A stretch of 64,000 nt of DNA, from positions 576,001-640,000 of the forward strand of contig CAWBVY010000004.1 of NCBI GenBank assembly GCA_963792415.1, read 5' to 3'. Shown here piece after piece: positions 6,469 to 22,871 of the stretch; positions within the stretch are counted from its first letter, which is position 1; each line of letters opens with the position of its first letter. The notes below the pieces were generated by a model that worked only from the letters and a program-made list of their open reading frames with translations, searched no databases and was not told the DNA's origin. The stretch comes from Candidatus Deferrimicrobiaceae bacterium. Lineage in GTDB: Bacteria > Desulfobacterota > Deferrimicrobia > Deferrimicrobiales > Deferrimicrobiaceae. Position numbers and translations under genes: made by a program.

Positions 6469-7314
6469 TCAGGGACGGAACTCCGTTCCGAAGACCCCCG
6501 CAAGCGAATCGGGCGGTCCGGCGATCTCGTGGAATTCCCGGAACCTCTCCTCCCGGAGCCGCCGGAATGCGGTCTCCAGTACGCTTTCCGTCGCCACGCC
6601 GAGGATGTCCCTGCGAAAGTCGCGTGCCTCGGCCAGGATCACGTCGAAGTCGTGGATCGTCCCCAGGAGGGTCTGGAAGGCGTGGAGGCGGTTCGCCGTT
6701 TCTTCCGTCGCCTTCGGGAAGAGCGGGAGGAGGATCTCCGCGGCGTAGCGGTAATTCTTGAAAGCGAGCCGCATCCGGTGCAGCGCTTCCGGGTGCGCCG
6801 GGTCGAGGGCCGCATCCCGGTGCTTCGAGACCTCGCGCTCCAGCCTTCCGAGAAGGCCCGGGGCGAGGATCGCCGCCTCGAGCCGGTCCCCGAGACCCCC
6901 GGCCCTCTTGGGGAAAGGTACCCGAAGGCGGCGGGCGGACCGCGTCCCGAGGCACGTTCGCACCCGGGACTCCCATCGGAGGACGTCGCTCGCCACCAGG
7001 ACGGCATACAGGCGGGAGGGTTCGTCCCCTTCCGGGACGAATTGAAGGATCCAGTCCCTCTTCACGTGGGCATCGCGCAGCTTTCCCAGCGGGATCATGA
7101 GCGTTTTCAGGGACGACCGGGCCGCGCGCAGCCCCGGATCGGGCCCCAGAATCGTGTCGCTCACGGCGATCCAGGCGAGGACCCTCCGGATCGCCACCCG
7201 CAGGTCGTGGACGGCCTCGTCGGAGGTCGGGTCGGCGGAAGTCCGCTTCAGCCGCGCCCGGAACCGGGCTGCCCGCGTCCGCCCCGACTCCTCGAGGAAG
7301 GCGGTCGCTTCCAA
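6469..7314 (-). CDS. CHAD domain protein (polyphosphate-binding)
   Basis: EAVHDLRVAIRR, LGKLRDAHV, EALHRMRLAFKNYRY, LGTIHDFDV: the duplicated CHAD His/Arg motifs. Confidence 0.9.
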   Translation of the reverse strand: MEATAFLEESGRTRAARFRARLKRTSADPTSDEAVHDLRVAIRRVLAWIAVSDTILGPDPGLRAARSSLKTLMIPLGKLRDAHVKRDWILQFVPEGDEPSRLYAVLVASDVLRWESRVRTCLGTRSARRLRVPFPKRAGGLGDRLEAAILAPGLLGRLEREVSKHRDAALDPAHPEALHRMRLAFKNYRYAAEILLPLFPKATEETANRLHAFQTLLGTIHDFDVILAEARDFRRDILGVATESVLETAFRRLREERFREFHEIAGPPDSLAGVFGTEFRP

Positions 7315-7323
7315 CGGGCTCCC

Positions 7324-7707
7324 CTAGCCCCCCATCTCCTTGCGGAGGGAGGCGGCGGCCTTCCCGATGCGCTCCAGGTCCTTTCGCCGCCCCTTCCGCG
7401 GCTTCACGGAGAGGTCGTGCAGGACCCCCAGCATCCTCTCGACCCGGGCGGCGGGGAGCGATTTTCCCTCGACGGCCTCGACCGCGGCCGCGATCTCCGC
7501 CTCCGTATTGGCGACGTACCGCTCCGCGATCTCGGTGAACATCGCCCGCAGGCGGCGCAGCTCGAGGACGAGCATATCCTGCGCCGTCTTCCGGGAAGGC
7601 TTGCGCGCGAGCGCCGCGGCGATGCTCTTTTTTTCCGGCGGGGGGGCGGCCCCCGGTTTCGCCGAGGCCGTCTTCCCCCTGGTCTGTTTCCCTTTGGTGG
7701 TGGCCAT
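7324..7707 (-). CDS. Hypothetical basic protein (Lys/Ala-rich N-terminus, helical C-terminus)
   Basis: 127-aa ORF with RBS AAGGGG, tightly packed between the kinase pair and CHAD. Confidence 0.75.
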   Translation of the reverse strand: MATTKGKQTRGKTASAKPGAAPPPEKKSIAAALARKPSRKTAQDMLVLELRRLRAMFTEIAERYVANTEAEIAAAVEAVEGKSLPAARVERMLGVLHDLSVKPRKGRRKDLERIGKAAASLRKEMGG

Positions 7708-7718
7708 TCGATGTCCCC

Positions 7719-8417
7719 TTATCCGTTCGGCGAGATGACGGCCTCGATCCGGGTCTGCAGGTCCCGCGTGATGGCGCGGGGAACCCGCATCCCGTTGATG
7801 GTTGCGAATCCGTAGATGGCCTGCAGCTTGTTGAAGGTCCGGTGGAGCTCGGACTGGTAGCGGATGAACGAGTCGTACCAGGACCGGTTGTACCCGATGT
7901 CCATTCCCGACTCCCAGTAGTCGAGCTCCCGCCCGCGGTAGATGTACCGCTCCATGAGCTTCTGGGGAGCCACGCGAAGGTACAGCACCAGGTCGGGGAC
8001 GAGGGCGATGCTGTACACCGATTGCAGCCAGGCGAGGTCGGCTCCCCGCACGATGTCACGCGCCATCAGGGTATAGATGTACCGGTCGGCGAGGACGATG
8101 AACCCCGCCCGCAGGGCCGGGAGGATCCGGTGCTCCAGCTGGTCCGCGAAATCGGTGGCGTAGAAGAGGGACAAGGTGCGCGGGGAGAGGACGTTCCCCT
8201 CCTTCGCCTCCGCCAGTTCATTCGCCACGAGGGTGGAGCGCTTCAGCCCCACGTGCTCGACCGCGTGCCCGCGCCGCTCCAGCCACTCGGTGAGAAAGGC
8301 GATCTGCGTGCTCCGCCCGGACCCGTCCGGCCCTTCGAGCACGACGAGCTTCCCCTTGAGGTCTCCGGTGGCGACCCCCGGAATCCCCTTGCCGTAGAAC
8401 GTTCTTGGCCGGTTCAT
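7719..8417 (-). CDS. Thymidylate-kinase-like protein 2 (degenerate P-loop; candidate PPK3 regulatory subunit)
   Basis: LEGPDGSGRSTQ (Lys replaced by Arg), LADRYIYT; ATG overlaps the upstream stop (ATGA). Confidence 0.8.
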   Translation of the reverse strand: MNRPRTFYGKGIPGVATGDLKGKLVVLEGPDGSGRSTQIAFLTEWLERRGHAVEHVGLKRSTLVANELAEAKEGNVLSPRTLSLFYATDFADQLEHRILPALRAGFIVLADRYIYTLMARDIVRGADLAWLQSVYSIALVPDLVLYLRVAPQKLMERYIYRGRELDYWESGMDIGYNRSWYDSFIRYQSELHRTFNKLQAIYGFATINGMRVPRAITRDLQTRIEAVISPNG

Positions 8418-9115
8418 ACCCGCCACCCCCTCGGGACCGTCACCTTGTATCGCGCGAGGTCGATCCGGTCGCGCAGGATCGCCCGGACCTCCTCCTGGAT
8501 CGCCTCCACGGGACGATCCGAGTTGATCCGGGTGAACCGGTGCCGGCGCGCGAGGGTTTCGTACGCCTTGTGGATCCTCCCCTGGAAGATCTTGAAGCTC
8601 TCCACAGGGTCCGGGGAGAGGCCGAGGTCCATTCCCGCCTCGTGGTATTTGAGCGCCGGGCGACCGACGAGGATCCGGTCCAGCGCCGTCCGGAGCGGGA
8701 GGGAGAAGTAGAAGGTGATGTCCGGCTGGAAGGCGAAGCTGTAGAGCTGCTCGACCCACTCCTGCGGGCACCCCCGGACGGTGTCGCGGGCGAGGGCGGT
8801 GAACTTGTACCGGTCCGCGAGGACGATGAACCCCGCCTTGAGCATCGGAAGGATGTTCCGTTCGTACCGGTCGGCGAAATCGGTGCAGTGGATGAGGGAG
8901 AAGGTGGTCGGTGTAAGGAGGTTCTGCTTCTTCCCCCGCCGGGTGGCGCTCCGGACGATCTCGGAGGAGTTCCACTCGGTGAAGAAGACTTTGTACCCGG
9001 ACAGCTCCAGCCAACGCTTGAGGAGGTACACCTGGGTCGACTTCCCCGATCCGTCGAGTCCCTCGACGGCGATCAGCTTTCCGGGGGTGGCGTTCGGGTT
9101 GGATATTTCCGGCAT
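8414..9115 (-). CDS. Thymidylate-kinase-like protein 1 (intact P-loop; candidate PPK3 catalytic subunit)
   Basis: VEGLDGSGKSTQ, LADRYKFT; clear paralog of the downstream gene. Confidence 0.82.
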   Translation of the reverse strand: MPEISNPNATPGKLIAVEGLDGSGKSTQVYLLKRWLELSGYKVFFTEWNSSEIVRSATRRGKKQNLLTPTTFSLIHCTDFADRYERNILPMLKAGFIVLADRYKFTALARDTVRGCPQEWVEQLYSFAFQPDITFYFSLPLRTALDRILVGRPALKYHEAGMDLGLSPDPVESFKIFQGRIHKAYETLARRHRFTRINSDRPVEAIQEEVRAILRDRIDLARYKVTVPRGWRV

Positions 9116-9119
9116 CCGG

Positions 9120-10658
9120 TCACTCCTCCCGGTCGATGGTCAGCTGCACGTCCACGCCGAAATGGTCGCGGAACATCGCGGCGTTGACGGTGACGCCCAG
9201 CGCCTCCAGGCGGCACGACTTCCGGCTCACCGCCCGCAGGAACAGCGACCCGTTCTGCAGGCGGCACGCGACGCTCCGGACGGCGGAGTTGTGCTCCTTG
9301 TCCAGCGCGTCGGCGATCCGGAGGATGGCGGCGAGGGAGGACACGGTGGCACGGTCCTTCTTGGGAAGCGCCTCGTACTCGGTGTGGGCCGTGTCCGGCG
9401 TGGCCTTCCGGTGATAGCGCGAAATCCCGGCGACGATGAGCCGCTCCGCCTGGGTAAGCCCGACGATTTCGGAGTTGGCGATGATGTAGTGGCTGTGCTT
9501 GTGGTGCTTCTGCATGCTGATGAAGTAGCCGACGTCGTGCAGGAACGCCGCCGCCTCGAGGTAGATCCGCTCCTGCTTCCCCAGCCCGTGCAGGGAATCC
9601 GTCTGGTCGAAGAGGCTCAGGGCGAGGTCCGCGACCTTCTCCGCGTGCTTCGGGTCCAGCTTGTACCGCGCGACCATCTCGCGGCACGACACGCCCACCT
9701 GCTCCCGGAGGTCCAGGAGGTGCTCGGCCCCCTTCGCCTGCTCGAGGATCTCCTGGATTACGCCGTCCTTCAGGCTCACCCGCGGGACGAGGATCTCCTC
9801 GGAGCCGTTCAGCTCCGCGATGCGGTGGTAGACGAAGCAGGCGGGCAGGATGACGTCGGCCCGGTCCTCCCGCAGCCCGAACCGCTCCATCCGGGTCTTC
9901 AGCGACATTCCGGAGAGCTCCTCCATCAGCCGCCGGAGGTTCCCCGCCTTGAGGCGCACGGTGTCCGGGTAGTCGGGGTGGGGCTCCGCGCGCACGTCGG
10001 GGATGGCGGCGATCGCCTCGATGTTCCCCCCCGTGGCGATGAACAGGGCCGCCTTCTTCCCGTTCCCCCGCCGGGACAGCTTCCGGCCCACCAGCTCCAT
10101 ATACTCGCCGAGCAGCTGGCCGGCGCCCCGCAGATCATCCTCCGCGGAGGAGAGCATGTCCAGCAGCCGCACGGCGCCGAAATTGTGGGAGTCCGCCAGG
10201 GTGATCCGGCCGTTCTCGACGAAGGTGATCTCCACCGACCCGCCGCCGAGGTCGACGATGAGGGCGCTCTTCTTCCCGAGGGGGATCCGCTTCCCGACGG
10301 CGACGGCGATCAGCCGCGCCTCCTCGTCGCCGTCGATCACCTCCACCCGGATGCCGGAGGCGCGCTCGAGACGGCTGAGCAGGAGATCTGCGTTGGAGGC
10401 CTCCCGGGTGGCGCAGGTGGCGACGGCCCGGACGGTCTGCACCCCGTGGGCCTTCAGCAACTGGCGGAAGCGCCGGAAGGCGGCCTCGGCCTTCCGGATG
10501 TTCTCCTCCCGGATGGTCCCCTTCAGGAAGACGTCCCCCCCCAGCCGGATCGGCTCCCGGAGGTTCTCCAGGACCCGGTACGGGGAGTCCCCCGCGGTCT
10601 CCACCACGTAGAACCGGATCGCGTTCGATCCCATGTCGATGGCGGCGATGCGGGCCAT
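9120..10658 (-). CDS. ppx: Exopolyphosphatase Ppx/GppA with C-terminal HD domain
   Basis: AIDMGSNAIR, VATCATREA, VDLGGGSVE, LHDVG, HHKHS, LRIADALD. Confidence 0.92.
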   Translation of the reverse strand: MARIAAIDMGSNAIRFYVVETAGDSPYRVLENLREPIRLGGDVFLKGTIREENIRKAEAAFRRFRQLLKAHGVQTVRAVATCATREASNADLLLSRLERASGIRVEVIDGDEEARLIAVAVGKRIPLGKKSALIVDLGGGSVEITFVENGRITLADSHNFGAVRLLDMLSSAEDDLRGAGQLLGEYMELVGRKLSRRGNGKKAALFIATGGNIEAIAAIPDVRAEPHPDYPDTVRLKAGNLRRLMEELSGMSLKTRMERFGLREDRADVILPACFVYHRIAELNGSEEILVPRVSLKDGVIQEILEQAKGAEHLLDLREQVGVSCREMVARYKLDPKHAEKVADLALSLFDQTDSLHGLGKQERIYLEAAAFLHDVGYFISMQKHHKHSHYIIANSEIVGLTQAERLIVAGISRYHRKATPDTAHTEYEALPKKDRATVSSLAAILRIADALDKEHNSAVRSVACRLQNGSLFLRAVSRKSCRLEALGVTVNAAMFRDHFGVDVQLTIDREE

Positions 10659-10834
10659 TCGGGATATCCCCCCTCCGGGATCATTGTAACGGGAACGGGC
10701 GCTCCTGCCCATGCCTTGTCGTGGAAAGGATTGTTGGATGCGCGCCGGGGCCGGAACGATCCCGGCGCGCATCCCGTTTCCGGAACAGGGCATCTTATTA
10801 TGGATTTGGTCGAGCCTGGCATATAGGGGGGGAG

Positions 10835-11749
10835 ATGGACAAGGAAAAGCGGGAGATCATGAAGAATATCGGGAAGTTCGTCGACCCTTATCGCATCACG
10901 AAAGGGAAGAGGTTCCGCCTCAAGGACATCGACCCGGGCGATACGGGCGACTACGGGTCGGAGCAGAAGCCGAGGGCCAAGGACCTGCTGGCGAAAGGCG
11001 TGCAGTGGATGGCGGAGGAGCAGGACAAGTTCTACGCCGCCGATCGCAACTCGATGCTGCTGGTGTTCCAGGCGATGGACGCGGCCGGAAAGGACGGCAC
11101 CATCCGCCACGTCATGTCGGGCGTGAACCCGCAGGGTTGCCAGGTGTACTCCTTCAAGCAGCCCTCCATGGAAGAGCTCGACCACGACTTCCTGTGGCGC
11201 TACCACAGGTGCCTCCCGGAACGGGGCCGCATCGGGATCTTCAACCGCTCGTACTACGAGGAGGTGCTCGTGGTCCGGGTGCACGAGGAACTGCTCGAGC
11301 GCCAGAGGATGCCGCGGGACCTGGTGACCAGGAGCATCTGGGAGGAGCGCCTGGAGGACATCGCGGGGTTCGAGCGCTACCTGGCGCGGCAGGGCACCAT
11401 CGTGCTGAAGTTCTTCCTGCACGTCTCCCGGAAGGAGCAGAAGCGGCGGTTCCTGGAGCGCCTGGAAATGCCGGAGAAGAACTGGAAATTTTCCACGTCC
11501 GACGTGACGGAGCGCGGTTACTGGGGGAAGTACATGGCGGCGTACGAGGATGCCATCCGGCGGACGGCCTCCAGGGAGGCGCCGTGGTACGTGATCCCGG
11601 CCGACAACAAGTGGTTCACCCGCCTCGTGGTCGCGGCGGTGATCGCCGAGGCGTTCTGGAAGCTGAAGCTCGCCTACCCGCAGGTCGACGACGCGAAGAA
11701 AAGGGAACTCGCCGCGGCGCGCAAGGCATTGATGGGCGAAAAGAAATAG
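10835..11749 (+). CDS. ppk2: Polyphosphate kinase 2 family (class III-like)
   Basis: FQAMDAAGKDG, FKQPS, IFNRSYYEEVLV, KFFLHVS, PWYVIPADNKW. Confidence 0.93.
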   Translation: MDKEKREIMKNIGKFVDPYRITKGKRFRLKDIDPGDTGDYGSEQKPRAKDLLAKGVQWMAEEQDKFYAADRNSMLLVFQAMDAAGKDGTIRHVMSGVNPQGCQVYSFKQPSMEELDHDFLWRYHRCLPERGRIGIFNRSYYEEVLVVRVHEELLERQRMPRDLVTRSIWEERLEDIAGFERYLARQGTIVLKFFLHVSRKEQKRRFLERLEMPEKNWKFSTSDVTERGYWGKYMAAYEDAIRRTASREAPWYVIPADNKWFTRLVVAAVIAEAFWKLKLAYPQVDDAKKRELAAARKALMGEKK

Positions 11750-11761
11750 GGCGGCTGCCGG

Positions 11762-12268
11762 TCACATGCGGGGAGTTCGGGGAAGTCGGGTCGCCGTCCC
11801 CTTGCCGTCCTCGATCCAGAGGAACTTCGCCGTTCCTTTCGGCACCCCTTTGTCCGTTTCCAGGGCCACCACGGCTCCCTTTCGGAGAGGGAAACCTCCC
11901 GGGACGGAGATCAGGGCCGCGGCGATGCCGCCCAGGTCCGGCTCGTGGCCCACGAAGGCCGCTTCCGCGGGGTTTCCCGCACGTGCCAGCAGGGCGCGGA
12001 GGGCCCGAAGGTCGAAGCCGGGAGAGAGTTCCCTGGCGACCACGACCTCGCCCTTGTGTTTCAGGCGCTCCGCGAGGATCTCGGCGGTCTGGACGGCGCG
12101 CAGCAGGGGGCTCGTGAAGATGACGTCCGGGGCGGCGCCCGTCTTGCGGGCCCGCCGGGCGATCTTCCGGAAGGAGAGCCGGCCCGTCGTCGTCAGGTAG
12201 CGGGAACCGTCCGGAATCGTCGCCGCTCGCTCGATCGCCTCCGCGTGGCGGACGAGGTACACTTTCAC
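11762..12268 (-). CDS. sixA: SixA-type histidine phosphatase
   Basis: LVRHAEA, TSPLLRAVQTA, VGHEP. Confidence 0.88.
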   Translation of the reverse strand: MKVYLVRHAEAIERAATIPDGSRYLTTTGRLSFRKIARRARKTGAAPDVIFTSPLLRAVQTAEILAERLKHKGEVVVARELSPGFDLRALRALLARAGNPAEAAFVGHEPDLGGIAAALISVPGGFPLRKGAVVALETDKGVPKGTAKFLWIEDGKGTATRLPRTPRM

Positions 12269-12271
12269 GGG

Positions 12272-12511
12272 CTACCCCGTACCCTTCTTCTTCTTCTTCC
12301 CTTTTCCCTTCTTCCCTTTCTTTTTCTTCTTCTTCTTCCCCTTCTTATCCTTCTTCTTGTCCTTCTTCCCCCGCTCCGGACGGGCCGCTTCACCCTCCGC
12401 CGGCGGCGGGAGGCCCGCGGTCTTCGACGTCTTCCTCGTTCCGGCCGCTTCCTCCATCGCGTGCCGCAGCCCTTCCCACTTCTCCTCCGGGATCAGCGTC
12501 TTCTTACCCAT
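12272..12511 (-). CDS. Small poly-lysine-tailed protein
   Basis: 79 aa; 22 Lys in a 28-residue C-terminal stretch; RBS AGGAGG inside the parA 3' end; 8-nt overlap with parA and 3-nt gap to sixA. Confidence 0.75.
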   Translation of the reverse strand: MGKKTLIPEEKWEGLRHAMEEAAGTRKTSKTAGLPPPAEGEAARPERGKKDKKKDKKGKKKKKKKGKKGKGKKKKKGTG

Positions 12512-13253
12512 GCTGCAACACCTCCTGCGCCAGCGCGCGGTAATCCTCGGCCCCCCGTCCCCCCGGCTGGTAGGAGAGGACGTCCTTCGAGCGGGCGGGC
12601 GCCTCGGCGAGGGAGATGCTCTGCCGGATGACCGTCCGGAACACCTTGTGGCGCAACGTTTCCCGGAGGTGCTCCTCGACCTGGCGGGAGAGGGAAGTCC
12701 GGACGTCGTACATGCAGGGGAGGATGCCCAGAATCTCCATCGGAAATCCGGCCTCGCGGATGGTCTTCACCATGCCGAGGATCTTTTCCAGTCCGTTCAG
12801 GGCCATGTACTGGGTCTGGAGCGGGATCAGCAGGGAACCGGAATACACCATCCCCATCAGGGAAAGGGCGCCCAGCGACGGGGGGCAATCCACGATGACG
12901 AAATCGAACCCCCGCATTCCGGCCAGGGCGTCCTTCAACGCCAGTGGGTACTCCGACGGCCGCTCGCGGAGGATCCGCTTCTCCGTTTCGGCCAGGACCG
13001 GGGTGGAGGGGAGGACGGTGAGGTGGGGGAGGGCGTGAAACGCCTCGCGGGGTTCCGCCTCGCCCGTGAGCACTTCCGCGACGGTCGGGCCGCCGGACGT
13101 CTCCACCCCGAGCGACTCCGTGAGCCCGGCCTGGGGGTCCAGGTCCACCAGGAGGACTTCCCGGCCCACTTCCGAGAGCGCCGCGCCGAGGTTGACGGCG
13201 GTCGTGGTCTTCCCGGTGCCGCCCTTCTGGTTGATGACCGTGATCTTCCGCAT
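12504..13253 (-). CDS. Orphan ParA/Soj family ATPase
   Basis: Deviant Walker A NQKGGTGKTT, VDLDPQ, VDCPPSLG, IRQSISLAEAP; no parB nearby. Confidence 0.92.
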   Translation of the reverse strand: MRKITVINQKGGTGKTTTAVNLGAALSEVGREVLLVDLDPQAGLTESLGVETSGGPTVAEVLTGEAEPREAFHALPHLTVLPSTPVLAETEKRILRERPSEYPLALKDALAGMRGFDFVIVDCPPSLGALSLMGMVYSGSLLIPLQTQYMALNGLEKILGMVKTIREAGFPMEILGILPCMYDVRTSLSRQVEEHLRETLRHKVFRTVIRQSISLAEAPARSKDVLSYQPGGRGAEDYRALAQEVLQHG

Positions 13254-13434
13254 GGCGCCACCCCCTGAATCCTCGCTCTCCCGGAGATTTCCGATTATAA
13301 GTCAGGCCCGCGGGTTCCGCCGGGGAAATCCGTATGGAAATCCTTGCGGGTCGGGTACACTGAAAGGGAGGTTTCCGGGCATCCGGCGACACGTTCTGCG
13401 ACGGAAGAAAATTTCCCTCTGGAGGTCGAACGCC

Positions 13435-13917
13435 GTGCTCTCCGCGCGCCTGATCGAACTGATCCAGACCAACGCCGAACACCTGACCCGCGACGTGCTG
13501 AAGGATTATGCCACCAACCCGCGGACGCGCCACTGGAACGTCGTGCCCGTCGCCGAGCTGGAACAGCGCGTGATCAGCACCTACAGGAACCTGGGAAACT
13601 GGATCGGCGACCCCAGGGAGGACGCGGTGCAGGCGGAGTACGAGGAGTGGGGCCGCAAGCGGTACCGGAACGGGATCCCGCTGAGCGAGGTCGTGTTCGC
13701 CGTGATCCTGCTGAAGCAGCACCTGAGGAGATACATCCGCGAGCACGGGCTCGTTGAGCACGTCCGGGACCGCAACGCCTCGCAGGAATTCCTCCCGGTT
13801 CACCTGTACGGGATCCAGGAACTGAATTCCCTGGTGGGGGATTTCTTCGACAAGGCGCTCTACCACCTGGCGCGGGGCTACGAGATGGAGGCCCGGGCGG
13901 CCCAGGGCACCCGGTAG
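13435..13917 (+). CDS. Hypothetical all-alpha protein (RsbRD-N / non-heme globin-like sensor domain)
   Basis: GTG start after GGAGG; GRKRYRNGIPLSEV and FFDKALYHLARGYE resemble globin-like sensor N-terminal domains. Confidence 0.65.
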   Translation: MLSARLIELIQTNAEHLTRDVLKDYATNPRTRHWNVVPVAELEQRVISTYRNLGNWIGDPREDAVQAEYEEWGRKRYRNGIPLSEVVFAVILLKQHLRRYIREHGLVEHVRDRNASQEFLPVHLYGIQELNSLVGDFFDKALYHLARGYEMEARAAQGTR

Positions 13918-14013: not shown

Positions 14014-14676
14014 CTACGCCAGCGGCCCCTGGTGCCGGACGTCCTTCCCCTTGACCATGAAGATCACGTCCTCGCAGATGTTGGTGGCGTGGTCGGCGAT
14101 CCGCTCGATGTGGCGCGAGACGAGGATCAGGTCCATGGCGCGGGGGATGGTGGTCGGGTCGGACATCATGAAGGTCAGCAGCTCCCGGAACACCTGGTCC
14201 TTCAGCTGGTCGACCTCGTCGTCCTTCAGGATCGTCCGGTACGCCAGTTCGTCGTCCCCGTTGACGTAGGCGTCCAGGGAGGCCTTCAGCATCTCCTGCG
14301 CGATGTCGGCCATCCGCGGGATGTCGATCAGCGGCTTGAGAGGCGGAACGGCGAGCAGCGACTCCCCCCGCTCCACGATGTTGATCGCCTGGTCCCCGAT
14401 CCGCTCCATGTCCACGATGATCTTCATCGCCGCCGTGATGAACCGCAGGTCGGCGGCCGCCGGCTGGCGCAGGGCGATGAGCTCCAGGCACGCCTCGTCG
14501 ATCTCGACGTGGAGCTGGTTGACCTGGGACTCCATCCCCCGGACCTCGGCGAGGATGCCCGCGTCGCGCTGCACGAGCGCATGGATGACCCGGCGGGTCA
14601 TCTGCTCCGCCAGCCCCCCCATCCGCAGGACCATTTCCCGGACATCCGCCAATTGACCCGTGTAATGCTTCTTCAT
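14014..14676 (-). CDS. phoU: Phosphate signalling protein PhoU
   Basis: RQPAAADLR, DMERIGD, DDEVD, ERIADHATNICE; follows pstB. Confidence 0.95.
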   Translation of the reverse strand: MKKHYTGQLADVREMVLRMGGLAEQMTRRVIHALVQRDAGILAEVRGMESQVNQLHVEIDEACLELIALRQPAAADLRFITAAMKIIVDMERIGDQAINIVERGESLLAVPPLKPLIDIPRMADIAQEMLKASLDAYVNGDDELAYRTILKDDEVDQLKDQVFRELLTFMMSDPTTIPRAMDLILVSRHIERIADHATNICEDVIFMVKGKDVRHQGPLA

Positions 14677-14702: not shown

Positions 14703-15464
14703 TCAACCAAACCGCCCGGTGATGTACTGCTCCGTCCGCTTGTCCGACGGATTGGTGAAGATCTTTCCGCTCTTGTCCATCTCGATCAGTTCGCCCATGA
14801 GGAAGAATGCGACCTGGTCGGAGATGCGCGCCGCCTGCTGCATGTTGTGCGTCACCACGGCGATGGTGTACTTCTCGCTCAGGTCCTCGATCAGCTCCTC
14901 GATCTTCGCGGTGGATGCCGGGTCCAGCGCCGAACACGGCTCGTCCATCAGGAGCACTTCCGGCTCGACGGCGAGGGCCCTCGCGATGCAGAGCCGCTGC
15001 TGCTGGCCGCCGGAGAGGGAGATCCCCGGCTGGGAGAGGTGATCCTTCACCTCGTTCCAGAGCGCGGCCATGACGAGCGACCGTTCGACCCTCTCCGCGA
15101 TGTCCCCTCGAGAGAGTGCCTTCCCGTTCAGCTTGAGCCCGACGGCGACGTTCTCGAACACCGACATGCGGGGGAACGGGTTCGGCTGCTGGAAGACCAT
15201 CCCGACCCGCCGCCGCAGGTATACCGGGTCGACCCGCTCGGAGTGGATGTCGACGCCGTCCAGCAGGATCCGCCCGCTGATCCGGAAACCGGGGGTCATG
15301 TCGTGCATCCGGTTGAGGCACCGGATGAAGGTGCTCTTACCGCACCCGGAGGGACCCATCACCGAGGTGACGGAATTTCGAGCGATGTCCATCCGGATCT
15401 TCTTCAGCACCTGGTTCTCCCCGAACCAGTTGCTCAGGTCGTGGATCTCGAAGATGTTCGCCAT
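14703..15464 (-). CDS. pstB: Phosphate ABC transporter ATPase PstB
   Basis: [39 protein letters not shown]. Confidence 0.96.
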
Positions 15465-15479
15465 CTCGCTTCCTTCCTT

Positions 15480-16319
15480 CTACCGCTTCTCCCGGGTGAG
15501 AACCCGGGCGGCGATGTTGATCAGCAGTACCATCGTGATCAGCACGAGGGCCCCCGCCCACGCCTTGTCGTGCCAGTCCGCGTAGGGCGAGATCGCGTAT
15601 GTGAACACCTGGAGCGGCACCGCCGCCATCGGCTGGTCGAGCTTCGTCTGCCAGAACTGGTTTCCGAGCGCCGTGAAGAGAAGAGGCGCCGTCTCTCCTA
15701 TGATGCGCGACATGGCGAGGAGGATACCCGTGAGGATCCCCGGCCACGCCGTCCGCACCGTGATGCGCAGCGTGGCTTTCCACCGCGCGATCCCCAGCGC
15801 CAGGGCGGCTTCCCGCACCGTCGTCGGCACGGTCCGAAGCATGTCCTCCGTCGTCCGGACGACGACGGGGATGAAGATCATGGAGAGCGCCGCCGCGCCG
15901 GCCCAGGCGGAGAACCGCTTCATCGGAAGGACCAGGAGAACGTAGGCGAAGATCCCCATGATGATCGAGGGGACGCCGGTCAGCGTGTCGACGGCGAACC
16001 GGACGGCGGAGGCGAACTTTCCCCTGCCGTACTCGGCGAGGTAGATGCCGGACATGACCGCCACCGGCACCGACCACGTCATCGTGAGGAGGGTGATGAC
16101 GACGGTGCCGAGGATCCCGTTTGCAATCCCGCCCCCGGGTTCCCCGACCGGGTGGGGAAGGTCGACGAGCAGGGTCCACCGGAGTTCCTTCGCGCCCTTG
16201 ATCACCAGGTCGAAGAAGATCAGGAACAGCGGCAGGACAACGAGCAGCGCGCAGAGGTAGAAGACCCACTTCATGGCGCGGTCGGCGGCCTTGCGGCGGA
16301 AGGTGATCGTCCCCGTCAT
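15480..16319 (-). CDS. pstA: Phosphate ABC transporter permease PstA
   Basis: GIYLAEY, GVPSI, IGETAPLL; operon position. Confidence 0.95.
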   Translation of the reverse strand: MTGTITFRRKAADRAMKWVFYLCALLVVLPLFLIFFDLVIKGAKELRWTLLVDLPHPVGEPGGGIANGILGTVVITLLTMTWSVPVAVMSGIYLAEYGRGKFASAVRFAVDTLTGVPSIIMGIFAYVLLVLPMKRFSAWAGAAALSMIFIPVVVRTTEDMLRTVPTTVREAALALGIARWKATLRITVRTAWPGILTGILLAMSRIIGETAPLLFTALGNQFWQTKLDQPMAAVPLQVFTYAISPYADWHDKAWAGALVLITMVLLINIAARVLTREKR

Positions 16320-16320
16320 G

Positions 16321-17250
16321 TCAGATCCCCCGCGAGGCGCGCGCGACCATCTTCGAAAGCATCCCCTTGGCCGCGAAGTTGACGATGAGTGTCAACAGCA
16401 TCAGGAGAAGGCCGATCAGGATGAGCGACGAAAGCTGGAGGCCGCCGGCCTCCGCGAATTCGTTGGCGATCACCGCCGCCATGGAGTACCCCTGCTGGAA
16501 CAGGGAGGCGAAGATCTCGGGCCGGTTCCCGATGACCATCGTGACCGCCATCGTCTCGCCCAGCGCCCGCCCCAGGCCGAGGATGGTGGCGCCGAAGATC
16601 CCCGGGAGGCAGTGCTGCCCGATCACGATGCGGATCATCTCCCAGCGGGTCCCCCCGAGCGAAAGGACCGCCTCCTTCTGCCGCTGCGGGACGGTGGCCA
16701 GCACCTCCCGGGTGACCGACAGGATGAACGGGATGATCATGATCGCGAGGAGCACCCCCGCCGCGAGCATGCTCGGGCCGTACACCGGCCCCTTGAAGAG
16801 GGGGATCCAGCCGAGGTATCTGGTCACCGGCTTCATGAACACGTCCCGGAGGATCGGCACCAGGACGAAGATCCCCCACAGGCCGTAGATGACGCTGGGG
16901 ATGGCGGCGAGGAGTTCCGCCAGCAGCGAGACGGGGGCCTTCAGCCACGGCGGTGCGAATTCGTTGATGAAGATCGCCGCCCCGACGCTGAGCGGGACGG
17001 CGATCAGCAAGGCGAGGAAGGAGGAGACCAGGGTTCCGAAGAGGAAAGGGAGCACCCCGAACTGCTCGAGTACCGGGTCCCATGTGCTGGTGACGAGGAA
17101 CGAGGCCCCGAACTTCCGCAGGGCGGGGAGCGATTCGCGCAGCAGCACCGCGGACAGAAGGACCGCGAGGAAAAGGACGACGGAGGCGAAGAAGGCGGAC
17201 GCCTTTTCGAACACGAGGTCTTTCGATATTTTTCCGGTTCGCGCCGCCAT
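16321..17250 (-). CDS. pstC: Phosphate ABC transporter permease PstC
   Basis: LAAIPSVIYGLWG, GRALGETMAV, IANEFAEA. Confidence 0.95.
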   Translation of the reverse strand: MAARTGKISKDLVFEKASAFFASVVLFLAVLLSAVLLRESLPALRKFGASFLVTSTWDPVLEQFGVLPFLFGTLVSSFLALLIAVPLSVGAAIFINEFAPPWLKAPVSLLAELLAAIPSVIYGLWGIFVLVPILRDVFMKPVTRYLGWIPLFKGPVYGPSMLAAGVLLAIMIIPFILSVTREVLATVPQRQKEAVLSLGGTRWEMIRIVIGQHCLPGIFGATILGLGRALGETMAVTMVIGNRPEIFASLFQQGYSMAAVIANEFAEAGGLQLSSLILIGLLLMLLTLIVNFAAKGMLSKMVARASRGI

Positions 17251-17353
17251 GCGAAATCAGGGTCCTCGTTTTACAGAGACAGGAAGGGGGGGATGGTCCC
17301 CCCTTCCCGATCCATATTGATGAACGGCAGTCCGCGGAGGCGGACCGCCGGGT

Positions 17354-18400
17354 CTAGTACAGCGATTTTCCCTTGAAGGAGATCTGCTTCAGCGTCTGGT
17401 CGACCTTCTCCACCACGTCTTTCGGCAGCGGCGCGTAGTCGAGCGCGGCCTCCATCTTCTGGCCGTCGCGGATCGCCCACTTGAGGAACTGTACAACGGC
17501 CTTCCCCCTGGCCTCGTCCTTCTGGTCCTTGTACACGAGGATCCAGGTGAGCCCGGAGATGGGCCATGACTCCTTCCCGGGAGCGTCGACGAGCGAGACG
17601 CGGAAATCGGCGGGCATCGACTTCGCCACTCCCGCGGCGGCGGCGGAGGTCGCCTCCAGTGTTGGTGTTACGAATTGTCCGTCCTTGTTCCGCAGCGACG
17701 CCACCGTCATCTTGTTCTGCTTGGCGTACGCGAGCTCGACGTATCCGATGGCCCCCGGCGTCTGTTTCACCACGCCGGCCACCCCCTCGTTCCCCTTGCC
17801 GCCGATCCCCAGCGGCCAGTTGACCGCCTTGCCGTGTCCGACCTTGGCCCGCCACTCGGTGTTCACCGTGGCCAGGTAGTTCGTGAAGATGTCCGTGGTA
17901 CCCGACCCGTCGGAGCGGTGGGCGACCACGATGTCCGCGTTCGGCATCGTGACGGTCTTGTTCAACTCCGCGATCCTCGGATCGTTCCAGCGGGTGATCT
18001 TCCCGAGGAAGATCCCGGCGAGGAGGTCGGGAGTCAGTTTCAGGCCGGACCCGACCTTGTCGAGGTTGTACACGACCACGACGGCGCCCATCGCGGTGGG
18101 GATGTGCAGGATCGCGCCCGGAAGCTTCGCCATCTCCTCCGCGGACATGGGGGCGTCCGTCGCGCCGAAATCGACGGTCCCCGCGGTGATCTGCTTGATC
18201 CCCCCCCCGGAGCCGATCGACTGGTAGTTGAACCTCACGCCCGGATTGGCGTTCGAATATTCGTAGAACCATTTCGAATAGAGCGGGTAAGGGAACGTCG
18301 CCCCCGCCCCGTTGATCATCAGTGGATCCGCCGCGAACGCGAATGACACGACGGCGAGCGTTGCCAGGACCCCTGCAAGAACTCCGTAGATCTTTTTCAT
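17354..18400 (-). CDS. pstS: Phosphate ABC transporter substrate-binding protein PstS
   Basis: Signal peptide; GAGATFPYP, YQSIGSGGG, HRSDGSGTT, GGKGNEGV. Confidence 0.96.
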   Translation of the reverse strand: MKKIYGVLAGVLATLAVVSFAFAADPLMINGAGATFPYPLYSKWFYEYSNANPGVRFNYQSIGSGGGIKQITAGTVDFGATDAPMSAEEMAKLPGAILHIPTAMGAVVVVYNLDKVGSGLKLTPDLLAGIFLGKITRWNDPRIAELNKTVTMPNADIVVAHRSDGSGTTDIFTNYLATVNTEWRAKVGHGKAVNWPLGIGGKGNEGVAGVVKQTPGAIGYVELAYAKQNKMTVASLRNKDGQFVTPTLEATSAAAAGVAKSMPADFRVSLVDAPGKESWPISGLTWILVYKDQKDEARGKAVVQFLKWAIRDGQKMEAALDYAPLPKDVVEKVDQTLKQISFKGKSLY

Positions 18401-19011: not shown

Positions 19012-20793
19012 TTACCCGGGGATCCGGATCGTGAAGCGGGTGCCGACGCCTATGCGGCTTTCCACCCGGATCGTCCCCCCGTGCGATTCGACGATGTGTT
19101 TCCCGATGGAGAGACCCAGGCCCGTCCCCCCCAGATCCCTCGACCGGCCCTTGTCGACGCGGTAGAACCGCTCGAAGATCCGGGAAAGGTGGTCCTGGGA
19201 GATCCCCGGTCCGTCGTCCGCCACCTCGAGGAGGCATGCGTCCCCCTCCATCCGGCCGGAGAGGGTGACGCGTCCCCCCGCCTTCCCGTACTTCAGGGCG
19301 TTGTCCACCAGGTTCGAGACGGCGAGGGCCAGCTTCCGGACGTCGGCGCGCAAGGTTCCCTCGCTCGCCGTCACGTCGATAACCTTTCCCATCCGGCCCG
19401 CCGCGGGACGATGCGGGTCGGCCACCCGAAAGAGGAAGACGGAGAGGGGGATCTCCTCCTTACCCAGCGGCACGGAGCCGGACTCGGCGCGGGAAAGCTC
19501 GAGGAGATCGTCGAGCAATCGTTCCATCCGGAGGGCGTTCCCGAGCGCCACGTCGACGAAGGACGGTTCCGGCGCGGCCCCTTCCCGGATCGAATCCTGG
19601 ATCGCCTCGAGGTACCCCCGGATGTTCGTCAGCGGCGTGCGCAGTTCGTGGGAGGCGTTCGACACGAAGTCGCTCTTGATCTGCGCCAGCCGCCGCTCCT
19701 CGGTGACGTCCCGAAGGGTGAGGAGGACGTCCACGTCCGATTCCCCGAGGTACCGGACCGTCGTCCCGGAACATCGGATCGTCCGGCTTCCCCGGCGCGT
19801 CATGATGGAAACGTCCCGCGATTTCGGCTGCTCGCCCTTCATCCATCCGTCGATGAAGGCGAGGGCCTGGGGATGACGGATCACTTCCGGGTACGGGCGT
19901 CCCGCGCCCATCGTCTCCGAGGCGTCGAAGATCTTCCCGGCTTCACGGTTCATCATCCGCACCGACCGGTCCGCCGCGATGACGATGACCCCGTCGTCGA
20001 GGTTGGCGAGCAGCGTCTCCAGGCGGGCTTTCCCCGCGTCCAGCTGTCCGATCGTGGCGGCAAGGTGCGACGCCATCCGGTTCATCGCGTTCGCCATGGC
20101 TTCTAGCTCATCGCCCGTCCGGATCTGGGCGCGCCGCGCGAGGTTGCCGGCCCCCATCTCCTTCGCCGCCGCCCGCATCTCCGCCAGGGGGCCGGTGACC
20201 TTCCGCGCCATGAAGGCGGCTCCCCCGAGGATGAGGAGGAGCGCGGCGAATCCCGTTCCCCAGATGATCGCGGTGATCTGCCAGAGGCGGCGGGTGAGGA
20301 CCGCGACGGGGACCGAGGCGCGGGCCGCTCCGACGATCGCGCCCTCGATCGAGATCGGGATGGCCGCGTACCGCTGTTCCTCGCGGACGGTGATGCTTCG
20401 CCGGAGGGATACCCCCGTCGTCCCCGACAGTGCGTCGCGGATCTCGGGGTGGTGCGCGTGGTTCTCCATGCCCGAAACGCCGGCCGCCCCCACGGCGGAA
20501 TCGGCGACCACGGTTCCGTCGGGCAGGACGACGGTGATGCGCGCTCCGATCTCCTTCCCGAGGCGGTCCCCTTCCCGGGAGATTCGCTCCCTGTCCTGGA
20601 CGGGGTCCGCGAGCAACGGCCGGAACGTTTCGGCGACGATGTGGGCCCGGGCGAGCAGGTTCTCGTCCGCGTCCGCCATCACGAGACTTCGCACGAGGAA
20701 GAAGCCGACGGCGCCGGCGATCAAAAGCGCGATCCCGGCGATCACGAGGTGCGTGAGGAAGAATTTCGCGGCGATGGAGAGGCGGCGGGCCAA
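19012..20793 (-). CDS. phoR: PhoR-like sensor histidine kinase (HAMP-PAS-HisKA-HATPase)
   Basis: Two TM segments, FVSNASHELRTPLT, NLVDNALKY, FYRVDKGRSR, GTGLGL. Confidence 0.9.
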   Translation of the reverse strand: MARRLSIAAKFFLTHLVIAGIALLIAGAVGFFLVRSLVMADADENLLARAHIVAETFRPLLADPVQDRERISREGDRLGKEIGARITVVLPDGTVVADSAVGAAGVSGMENHAHHPEIRDALSGTTGVSLRRSITVREEQRYAAIPISIEGAIVGAARASVPVAVLTRRLWQITAIIWGTGFAALLLILGGAAFMARKVTGPLAEMRAAAKEMGAGNLARRAQIRTGDELEAMANAMNRMASHLAATIGQLDAGKARLETLLANLDDGVIVIAADRSVRMMNREAGKIFDASETMGAGRPYPEVIRHPQALAFIDGWMKGEQPKSRDVSIMTRRGSRTIRCSGTTVRYLGESDVDVLLTLRDVTEERRLAQIKSDFVSNASHELRTPLTNIRGYLEAIQDSIREGAAPEPSFVDVALGNALRMERLLDDLLELSRAESGSVPLGKEEIPLSVFLFRVADPHRPAAGRMGKVIDVTASEGTLRADVRKLALAVSNLVDNALKYGKAGGRVTLSGRMEGDACLLEVADDGPGISQDHLSRIFERFYRVDKGRSRDLGGTGLGLSIGKHIVESHGGTIRVESRIGVGTRFTIRIPG

Positions 20794-20799
20794 GCGGCG

Positions 20800-21522
20800 T
20801 CAGCTTTCCCGAAGTTTGTAGCCGACGTCCTTGACCGTCTCGATCGCCTTGGCCAGGAAGGGGATCTTCTGGCGAAGCTTCGCGATGTGGACGTCGACCG
20901 TGCGGTCGATCACGTGCGTGTCCTCCCCCCAGACCTTCGTAAGGATCGCCTCGCGGGAGAGGACCCGCCCCGAAGAGGAGAGGAGCGTCTGAAGGATGCG
21001 AAATTCCTTGGAGGTGAGGGAGACCGGCTTCCCCTGGCACCGGACCTCGTGGCGGGCCACGTCCATCCGCAGCTCCCGGTAGGCCAACGTTGCCGGCTCG
21101 GGTTCCTGGGACCCGGGGCGACTCCGGCGCAGGATCGCCTTGATCCGGGCCACGACCTCCCTCGGGCTGAACGGCTTCGGTATGTAGTCGTCCGCGCCCA
21201 GCTCCAGCCCGACGATCCGGTCCGTCTCGTCCCCCTTCGCGGTGAGCATCACCACCGGCGTCCTGCCGATCGCATCGTCCGACCGGATCGCCCGCAGCAC
21301 TTCCAGCCCGTCGGCCTTCGGGAGAAGGATGTCGAGGAGAACCAGGTCGGGCTTCTCCTTCCTCGCCTTGAGAATCGCCGTTTCTCCGTCCGGCGCGAGA
21401 AGCGCGGAGAACCCCTCCTTGCGCAGGTAGTGGGCGAGCAGGTCCCGGATCTCTTTTTCGTCTTCGACGACGAGGATCGAGCGCGGCAAGGCGGTCTCCG
21501 GGGTTTCCGATGCGAGACCCAT
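20800..21522 (-). CDS. phoB: PhoB/PhoP-like OmpR family response regulator
   Basis: LVVEDE, LLDILLP, GADDYIPKPF, RTVDVHIAKLRQK; next to phoR and pst. True start may be slightly downstream. Confidence 0.87.
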   Translation of the reverse strand: MGLASETPETALPRSILVVEDEKEIRDLLAHYLRKEGFSALLAPDGETAILKARKEKPDLVLLDILLPKADGLEVLRAIRSDDAIGRTPVVMLTAKGDETDRIVGLELGADDYIPKPFSPREVVARIKAILRRSRPGSQEPEPATLAYRELRMDVARHEVRCQGKPVSLTSKEFRILQTLLSSSGRVLSREAILTKVWGEDTHVIDRTVDVHIAKLRQKIPFLAKAIETVKDVGYKLRES

Positions 21523-22871
21523 TATAGGGGGTTTCGGGGGGCCGGTACACCTTCACAGAAGAGGCGAATCCGGTTTTCCAACTCACGGTAGGTGGAACGA
21601 AAGGCATTCCTCCTCGCGAGTTCATCCCCTTCCGCCGCCGCCGGATCGGGCACTCCCCAGTGGGCCGTCACCGGGGATCCGGGCCAGACCGGGCACACCT
21701 CTCCCGCCGCGTCGTCGCAGACGGTGAAGACGAAATCGAGTTCGGGGGACCCGGGGCGGGCGAACTCCTCCCAGCTCTTGCTGCGGCAACCTTCCGTCGG
21801 GTACCCGAGCGATTGGAGGAGCTCCAGGGCAAGAGGGTGCACGGCCCCCTTCGGGTGACTTCCGGCGCTGTATCCCCGGAACCGTCCTTCGCCGAGTCGT
21901 GTGATCAGGGCTTCGGCGAGGATGCTGCGCGCGGAATTCCCCGTGCAGAGGAACAGAACGTTGCAGACCTTCGGATTCTTCGTGAGCGGAACGTCCGGAG
22001 AGGGGAACTCCTTCGGGACCACGACCTGAAGGAGGGCGTCCGTCACCGTGAACCGGACCGGGAGCGGCCCCAGGTACTCCCCGTCGACCTGGCAGGCGGA
22101 CGGGATCGGGCAGCGGACGAAGAGGGAAGGGCTCTCCCGGACCAGGACGTGGCGGGAGGCGACGTGCTTCCCCCGCAGGGCGTCGAGGGCGAACTTCGCG
22201 ATCGACCAGCGCCCTTTCCGGAGGAGGGCGATCACCTGGAACGTCTCCCCGGCGATGTCCCCACCGGGTGCGATCGTCACGTTCCCGCCGTATTTTTTCC
22301 CCCGCGCGACGATGACGGCCTGCGCCTCGATCCGCTGGCGGTCCGGGAATTCGAGCCAGAGGGTCGGCTGGGAGCGGAGGAGGTGCCGCGCGCCGCACAG
22401 GACGTAGGCGGCGATGCCGAGGAGGTTCTTCTGGCGGGAGTTCATCCGCTCCACCACCTCGGCGTCGAACCCCGCGGAGGCGAGCAGGACGAAGCGCCGG
22501 TCGTTCGCCTTCGCCATCCGGACGGAGATCGTCTTCCCGGAGGAGAGAAGGTCCAGGCACCCTTCCACCGATTCGGGGAGGGAGAACTCGCGGGCGAAGA
22601 CGTTCCCGGTACCGTGGGGGACGAAGGCCAGGCGGGTGGCGCTGCCCGCCAGCCCGTCCGCGACCTCGTTCATCGTGCCGTCCCCGCCGACGGCGACGAC
22701 GGCGTCGGCCCCTGCCAACGCCGCTTCGCGCGCCATCACGATGGCGTCCCCGGGGGCGGACGTCTCCCGGATCCGGAACGGGAGGCCGCGCGCCGAGAGG
22801 TACGCGCGGACCCGGCCGATCCGCTTCACGACCTTGGGGCCGGCGACGGGGTTATGGATCACGTCGATCAT
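21522..22871 (-). CDS. Fusion of diacylglycerol-kinase-family lipid kinase and LMW-PTP-type arsenate reductase (ArsC)
   Basis: N-terminal NPVAG, VGGDGT, PHGTGNVFA, QVDGE; C-terminal VLFLCTGNSARS, FTVCD, CPVWPG, HWGVPDP; one uninterrupted frame. Confidence 0.85.
   Translation of the reverse strand: MIDVIHNPVAGPKVVKRIGRVRAYLSARGLPFRIRETSAPGDAIVMAREAALAGADAVVAVGGDGTMNEVADGLAGSATRLAFVPHGTGNVFAREFSLPESVEGCLDLLSSGKTISVRMAKANDRRFVLLASAGFDAEVVERMNSRQKNLLGIAAYVLCGARHLLRSQPTLWLEFPDRQRIEAQAVIVARGKKYGGNVTIAPGGDIAGETFQVIALLRKGRWSIAKFALDALRGKHVASRHVLVRESPSLFVRCPIPSACQVDGEYLGPLPVRFTVTDALLQVVVPKEFPSPDVPLTKNPKVCNVLFLCTGNSARSILAEALITRLGEGRFRGYSAGSHPKGAVHPLALELLQSLGYPTEGCRSKSWEEFARPGSPELDFVFTVCDDAAGEVCPVWPGSPVTAHWGVPDPAAAEGDELARRNAFRSTYRELENRIRLFCEGVPAPRNPL

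Follow-up and report, generated by a model that had tools for sequence, protein, structure and literature searches.

A ParA-type ATPase and a 79-residue lysine-rich protein in a polyphosphate locus: a plausible granule-positioning cassette

Introduction

How bacteria space and inherit their polyphosphate (polyP) granules is an open question. In the available text of a 2025 review (PMC13052382), no ATP-dependent component is given for these granules; only AlgP is named, and the review asks whether energy is spent. A locus of a Candidatus Deferrimicrobiaceae bacterium raises the same question from the side of the genome. Within a stretch of 64,000 nucleotides (assembly GCA_963792415.1, contig CAWBVY010000004.1, positions 576,001 to 640,000), hereafter called the window, an orphan parA gene is followed by an open reading frame (ORF) for a 79-residue protein with a lysine-rich tail and then by a sixA-like gene, and the three stand among genes of phosphate and polyP metabolism. 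What would a ParA without a neighbouring ParB act on there? A first-pass annotation of the window had proposed that the small protein links ParA to polyP granules. On the genomic evidence given below, we consider it plausible, with a rough probability of 45%, that parA and the gene of the 79-aa adaptor form a cassette that positions polyP granules. Granule positioning is the best available reading of the pair, and comparison with related loci has added support to it.

The parA gene and the small ORF form a coupled pair

Re-translation of the window (Table 1) reproduced the gene facts of the first-pass annotation, including the KGGTGKTT motif of ParA, the 8-nt overlap and the 3-nt gap between the genes, the MGKKTL peptide, the Pro/Ala linker and the Lys counts of the small protein. 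The overlap consists of ATGGGTAA, which is common to the ATG of the small ORF and the TAA of parA. An AGGAGG lies inside the 3' end of parA, 9 nt 5' of the ATG. This overlap and the internal AGGAGG indicate that parA and the small ORF are translationally coupled. Three bases separate the TAG of the small ORF from the GTG of sixA, and no terminator of note was found between the genes of the unit.

About 40 nt 5' of the parA ATG lies a promoter-like element, CTGGCTTATAATCGGAAATCTC, with a perfect TATAAT and no -35. It occurs once in the window. In relatives, the element is kept whether the divergent ORF, phoU or PhoR is upstream, and it is degenerate but recognisable in the copy of genome G023. 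A perfect direct repeat, GGAAATCC-GTAT-GGAAATCC, occupies 13324-13343 between parA and the divergent ORF, with an inverted copy at 13289-13295, and is partly retained in relatives with the same upstream neighbour. We considered GGAAATCC-N4-GGAAATCC as a Pho box or common regulatory site and rejected it, since there is no other good copy in the window and the repeat is lost in loci with another upstream neighbour.

The small ORF is a conserved gene

The small protein starts with MGKKTLIPEEKWEGLRHAMEEAAGT (N-terminus MGKKTL), continues with a Pro/Ala/Gly linker and ends in the Lys-rich tail, with 22 Lys among the 28 residues 49-76 (by another count, 22 in the last 31 and 20 in the last 28 residues). 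No match to it was found in Pfam or NCBIfam. Residues 1-40, used in a word-based search, returned 116 proteins, all with the same N-terminus and a Lys-rich tail, and a scan of metagenome contigs yielded 74 loci of the cassette. The small ORF is complete in 69 of the 74; the other five have no Met at the start motif, mostly at contig ends. The Lys-rich tail, scored as present when Lys makes up 40% or more of the final 30 residues, is in frame in 67 of the 69 complete copies, at protein lengths of 76-109 aa; of the two exceptions, one is a 42-aa truncation and one is frameshifted. Tail length (12272-12370) is hypervariable across the 69 copies, as AAG/GAG-type codons are gained and lost in frame, and resembles in this the repeat-number variation reported for AlgP. 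That indels in the repeat tract are so often in frame indicates that the small ORF is translated. Codons 1-26 occur in 36 distinct DNA versions, among which codons 6, 9, 15, 16, 21 and 24 vary synonymously with the residue constant, and positions 3 and 4 of the N-terminal peptide carry Lys or Arg in nearly all copies. The annotation had asked for conservation of the Lys-rich ORF, and both the in-frame copies and the synonymous-only change at N-terminal codons provide it. The comparison identifies the small ORF as a real, selected gene and not a chance reading frame.

The family is real but narrow, as an exhaustive profile search returned essentially nothing beyond it. The first 45 residues were compared with 1.84 billion representatives (E at most 0.001), giving nine matches. 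Six that were fetched and two already known (P0228, P0239) belong to this family, one of the matches being a chimera of ParA and the small protein (an internal deletion or an assembly error). The ninth, a 17-residue stretch of a 1623-aa protein (E 2.6e-5), was taken as noise. AlphaFold2 on the family alignment predicted helix 9-26 as the sole moderately confident element (block pLDDT 72-84) and the remainder at low confidence. Among 16 longer ParA homologues, none carries a fused Lys tail. In the near-complete genome G002 (L021, 10404-10688), the small ORF is frameshifted past residue 14; an intact, near-identical version is present in a metagenome (P0214). The frameshift reflects either misassembly of the repeat or a genuine loss.

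The orphan ParA derives from ParB-linked ParAs and evolves fast

The orphan ParA matches Pfam AAA_31 (1.3e-41) and CbiA (3.2e-23), and its best solved relative is Soj of T. thermophilus (1WCV, E 1.9e-47). KGGTGKTT spans residues 10-17. K10, K15, D37, D39 and D122 are invariant in 52 aligned sequences, and the catalytic motifs of a deviant Walker A ATPase all read as intact. R185 is invariant in the alignment as well and aligns with the MxDxRT region of Soj; we take it to be the equivalent of the DNA-binding Arg R189 of B. subtilis Soj. No C-terminal amphipathic helix is evident in the ParA sequence.

No ParB_N gene adjoins this parA, and the gene downstream of it has no Pfam family. The genome's sole ParB_N match lies ~378 kb off, which agrees with the first-pass statement that no parB is nearby; beside it stands a second, canonical parA, whose product is 42% identical to the orphan ParA. 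Of 28 genomes of the genus, 8 have an orthologue of the orphan ParA (at least 72% identical), and beyond this clade identity is at most 49%. At 29 loci of 40-47%-identical relatives, a small Lys-rich ORF was found downstream of none (highest Lys fraction 0.13), and 19 of the 29 downstream products start with a ParB-type GLGRGL-like motif, as read from their N-termini. A maximum-likelihood tree of 22 rows, midpoint-rooted for drawing only, places the clade within the ParB-linked ParAs, at the end of a stem 1.29 changes per site long. At eight positions where other ParAs are conserved to 80% or more, this clade has another residue fixed, e.g. LSLMGM in place of LTLNAL. The tree position, the long stem and the fixed substitutions fit duplication of a chromosomal ParA followed by a change of partner, and they mark the protein as a fast-evolving offshoot of ParB-linked chromosomal ParAs. 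We also asked whether the N-terminus of the small protein descends from that of the genome's own ParB (KKKALGRGLSALL vs GKKTLIPEEKWEGL), and the likeness was too weak for such a claim.

These results bear on the possibility that the pair has no current role and is only the decaying remnant of a partition cassette from a plasmid or mobile element. Such decay would suit the patchy occurrence in 8 of 28 genus genomes, the frameshifted small ORF in G002, and the G023 copy that lies beside a toxin-antitoxin pair. However, the best plasmid ParA among the 5000 best-scoring records is only ~41% identical, the small protein was on no viral contig searched, reading frame and residues are strongly conserved, and so is the promoter-like element. 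We disfavour the remnant explanation and consider it very improbable.

A proposed model for granule positioning by ParA and the small protein

The locus is best explained by insertion of a two-gene cassette, composed of a duplicated chromosome-type ParA and the 79-aa adaptor with its own promoter-like element, in the Pho/polyP supercluster of some species of the genus, in most copies directly upstream of sixA. In the mechanism that we propose, ATP-bound ParA dimers would coat the nucleoid. Adaptor residues 1-26, that is, the peptide with Lys3 and Lys4 and the following helix, would dock on ParA and stimulate its ATPase, and the disordered tail (56% Lys, with Gly, Glu and Asp) would bind polyP electrostatically. 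Putative granules would then ride ParA gradients and be spaced or partitioned, as in McdAB-type systems.

The pair resembles McdA/McdB in that an orphan ParA-type ATPase stands beside an adaptor that is small, mostly disordered and basic at its N-terminus, and the proposed logic is also shared, with the nucleoid as matrix, an adaptor on the cargo and stimulation of the ATPase. It differs in that no sequence relation between the adaptors was found by Pfam, NCBIfam or family profile searches, that the window ParA is a recent offshoot of ParB-linked chromosomal ParAs, and that the proposed cargo is polyP.

Composition of the Lys-rich tail

What the tail binds is decisive for this model. In 120 tails, K makes up 56% of the residues, followed by G 17%, E 12%, R 6%, D 2%, A 1.7% and P 0.2%, with a median net charge of +21. 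Lys exceeds Arg about eightfold in the tail (0.52 vs 0.07); the fractions in neighbouring genes are 0.045 for Lys and 0.084 for Arg. According to the available text of PMC12345225, PASK motifs (20-residue windows in which D/E/S/K make up at least 75%, with one Lys or more) are rare in bacteria, polyP binds poly-Lys, and Lys-to-Arg changes abolish the polyP shift. By that definition a PASK window is present in 109 of 117 family members, and the best window in the 79-aa protein reaches 0.90.

The principal rival of granule positioning is non-specific DNA binding by the tail, which would make the pair a nucleoid system without ParB, acting in compaction, as a segregation helper or as an H1-like protein distributed by ParA, and its position in a phosphate locus would be incidental or reflect Pho co-regulation only. 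The Soj descent of this ParA and its invariant R185, with the presumed equivalence to the DNA-binding Arg of Soj, are in keeping with such a system, and the G023 copy lies outside any polyP locus. In the available text of PMC9239181, moreover, the Lys-rich tails of AlgP and PhaF bind DNA. AlgP of P. aeruginosa and PhaF/PhaM share with the small protein a Lys-rich, disordered, length-variable tail that has been implicated in the spacing of storage granules, but the same source describes for AlgP a 124-aa helical N-domain and a tail of KPAA repeats; AlgP has no ParA partner. H1-like proteins of the AlgP/PhaF kind combine K/A/P repeats with a separate granule-binding domain; the window protein has a structured part of 26 residues, with one ~18-residue helix as the only such element beyond the tail, a K/G/E/D tail poor in Ala and Pro, and a gene translationally coupled to that of ParA. 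There would also be no cargo if the partner shared its matrix with ParA; the genome has an intact canonical parAB elsewhere, and the cassette is restricted to CHAD-positive genomes (8/8). Tail composition leans toward polyP over DNA, without deciding between them. Weighing both sides, we judge the DNA-binding explanation unlikely, though not negligible.

Linkage of the cassette to phosphate and polyP genes

The first-pass annotation treated sixA as a specific part of the operon, a view that the comparison does not sustain. In genus members without the pair (G004, G011, G012 and G001, to which G023's own sixA was added), a sixA orthologue (70-90% identical) directly follows the gene of a 494-aa PhoR-like kinase and adjoins ppk2 or pstS. 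G014 has a lone sixA between ppx and the divergent ORF, in a locus equivalent to that of the window without the parA-small pair and ppk2; the divergent ORF, found there in the absence of the pair, is thus not part of the cassette. Because sixA follows PhoR in pair-less genomes, and because the published operon is of the SixA-PPX-PPK3-CHAD type (PMC12995831, discussed below), sixA belongs to the Pho/polyP set itself. The comparison places sixA as older than the pair, with parA and the small gene inserted upstream of it together with their own promoter-like element.

Across the 74 metagenome loci, parA is upstream of the small ORF in all 55 with at least 400 nt of flank, a sixA orthologue is downstream in 53 of 58, and ppk2 comes next in 31 of 33. 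The parA-small-sixA unit persists while its upstream neighbour changes among the divergent-ORF region (rows that mark conserved DNA only), phoU, CHAD and PhoR. At a second insertion site (L201/L202), the pair lies between a YegS-like gene (301 aa) and phoB-phoR, downstream of a PiT-type transporter, the neighbours being assigned by their termini and, for PhoR, by a tblastn match. Of the 17 CHAD-positive genomes of the genus, 8 have the cassette, and of the 11 CHAD-negative ones, none; all are kin, and several of the negatives are incomplete. The changing neighbours, the second site and the co-occurrence with CHAD add some independence to the linkage.

The same neighbourhoods invite another explanation, in which the pair would serve phosphate signalling or metabolism instead of positioning. 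ParA might, for instance, localise or gate the PhoR/PhoU/Pst complex or SixA. In another form of this explanation, the small protein would act on the access of PPK2, PPX and PPK3 as a static 'phosin' or buffer of polyP, and ParA would be a regulated nucleoid anchor. Insertion sites adjoin sixA, phoU, PhoR or phoB, sixA ancestrally follows PhoR, and a SixA gene comes after ParA in an unrelated operon too (see the next section), all of which would suit such a role. On the other hand, we know of no ParA/MinD system that acts on two-component kinases, the partner's sole long feature is a tail of the polyanion-binding type, and a static buffer would need no intact ATPase under selection. We think this explanation quite improbable.

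CHAD-linked ParAs in other polyP loci

Among 151 genomes sampled from the phylum, CHAD is present in 14, at 15 loci, and a ParA-like gene adjoins CHAD at four of the 15. Two genomes of another genus have the order CYTH-CHAD, ParA (with overlapping start) and SixA-like, and a third genome has CHAD, ParA and CYTH. The former operons (L227, 6170-8995; L228, 6362-9624) lie beside argJ, with no polyP kinase in the fetched flanks. In the available text of PMC10892726 and PMC6416229, Acidithiobacillus has the order folD-ppk-parA-CHAD, with parA between ppk1 and CHAD, and no positioning claim is attached to it. These pairs resemble the window in having a ParA gene among polyP genes and, in the same phylum, a SixA-like gene directly after ParA. 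The CHAD-linked ParAs are, however, only 23-31% identical to the orphan ParA and are separated from its clade at 100/100 support, and the putative adaptor there is the CHAD protein encoded directly upstream. In the window, CHAD ends at 7314, 5 kb from parA, and the poly-Lys mini-protein holds the coupled position. A broader claim, that active positioning of polyP granules by ParA-type ATPases arose at least twice, once with the widespread CHAD-coupled ParA and once with a duplicated chromosomal ParA that gained a 79-aa adaptor, SixA being the third conserved component of both, is one that we put forward only tentatively.

The surrounding supercluster contains a PPK3-type operon

The neighbourhood was annotated by Pfam, NCBIfam and PDB searches (Table 1), which bore out that the unit converges on ppk2 and lies between ppx/CHAD and phoU-pstBACS. 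The end of ppk2 is 12 nt from the sixA stop. The sixA-like product matches Pfam His_Phos_1 (3.6e-10), contains RHAEA and GHEP motifs and scores 70.8 bits against TIGR00249 (sixA), for which the cut-off is 74.5.

Two thymidylate-kinase-like genes stand in tandem beside ppx, sixA and CHAD. One product matches 2plr/5h70 (S. tokodaii STK_15430) at E 1.1e-60, and canonical dTMP kinases at ~1e-15. The available text of PMC12995831 describes 2plr/5h70 as the structure of a homologue of the catalytic subunit (cPPK3) of a new polyP kinase, PPK3, and reports an S. acidocaldarius operon with the order SixA-PPX-cPPK3-rPPK3-CHAD. As this gene set and the structural match agree with that report, the window holds a bacterial version of the SixA-PPX-PPK3-CHAD operon, with the difference that ppk2 and the parA cassette interrupt it here. 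The second thymidylate-kinase-like gene is a candidate for the regulatory subunit from gene order. ParA is not among the proteins given in that text as typical of PPK1/PPK2 neighbourhoods. The genome, scored 100% complete with 72 kb withheld, has one PPK2 and one CHAD, both within this locus, and no PPK1 domain was found in it. The tandem genes and the absence of PPK1 point to a bacterial PPK3-type polyP kinase operon.

Table 1. Features of the phosphate/polyP supercluster in the window
Feature	Position	Strand	Evidence or remark
CHAD polyP-binding protein	6469-7314	minus	Pfam CHAD 1e-28
127-aa ORF	7324-7707	minus	no assigned family
Second thymidylate-kinase-like gene, candidate regulatory PPK3 subunit	7719-8417	minus	Thymidylate_kin domain; starts possible at 8417, 8426
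Thymidylate-kinase-like gene, candidate catalytic PPK3 subunit	8414-9115	minus	matches 2plr/5h70
Exopolyphosphatase Ppx/GppA	9120-10793	minus	Pfam Ppx-GppA 9.2e-41 and domain III
PPK2, single-domain, PPK2_rel_1 type	~10835-11749	plus	Pfam PPK2 4.5e-65; TIGR03709 385 bits
sixA-like	11762-12268	minus	168 aa, GTG start, His_Phos_1/SixA-like, last gene of unit
Small ORF	12272-12511	minus	79 aa, candidate ParA partner
parA	12504-13253	minus	orphan Soj-type ParA ATPase, 249 aa, KGGTGKTT
Promoter-like element	13284-13303	minus	5' of parA; perfect TATAAT
Divergent ORF	13435-13917	plus	conserved, 160 aa, no Pfam/NCBIfam family
PhoU	14014-14676	minus	Pfam
pstBACS	14703-18400	minus	Pfam
PhoR-like histidine kinase and PhoB-like response regulator	19012-21522	minus	Pfam
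YegS/diacylglycerol-kinase-like and low-molecular-weight phosphotyrosine phosphatase fusion	21522-22871	minus	directly 5' of phoB

Discussion

Several observations weigh against positioning of polyP granules by the pair. The binding partners of Lys-rich tails include DNA, RNA and acidic lipids. The small protein has no second domain, and DNA binding by the tail would leave it no cargo. Phylogenetically, the family is narrow, and its linkage in the 74 loci is mostly inherited synteny, since these loci are close relatives (ParA at least 86% identical). In G023, whose ParA is 72% identical, the pair lies outside any polyP locus, with a DUF6364 gene, a VapBC-type pair, a PBP_like_2 protein and a ShlB-type transporter as neighbours, and sixA is on another contig, after PhoR. 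The first-pass expectation that homologous ParAs are linked to polyP genes thus stands for the metagenome loci, largely as synteny, and fails in this divergent genome. No standard sigma-70 promoter was called for the unit. Hints of expression come from four estuary metatranscriptome runs of four studies, in which parA and sixA are covered by Logan contigs that differ little from them; one contig, 424 nt long, runs across 12369-12694, containing the small-ORF start and the parA 3' end, in a comparison that skipped the repeat 12290-12348. None of the listed RNA runs holds half of the sampled words, DNA carry-over in such libraries is possible, and strand and level are unreadable from them. As an observation on the G023 locus itself, the VapB-like RHH and PIN-domain genes are directly 3' of parA-small (L024, 2487-3127), in DNA of 62.7% G+C compared with 67.6% in the window.

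As to novelty, no description of an ATP-driven polyP positioning system was found in the literature searched. The first-pass claim that such a module is undescribed holds only in part: a parA beside ppk and CHAD has already been published for Acidithiobacillus, with no claim of positioning.

The locus documents a bacterial PPK3-type polyP operon in a PPK1-less genome. The cassette within it is a very small, portable test object, consisting of one ATPase and a 79-residue protein whose two proposed functions lie in separable halves. In polyP loci, SixA stands next to a Soj-derived ParA and also to a CHAD-linked ParA unrelated to it, a convergence that would be hard to explain without a common cargo. 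If granule positioning is true, no cargo adaptor known in the ParA family would be smaller than the 79-aa protein, with its ParA-docking peptide and polyP-binding tail.

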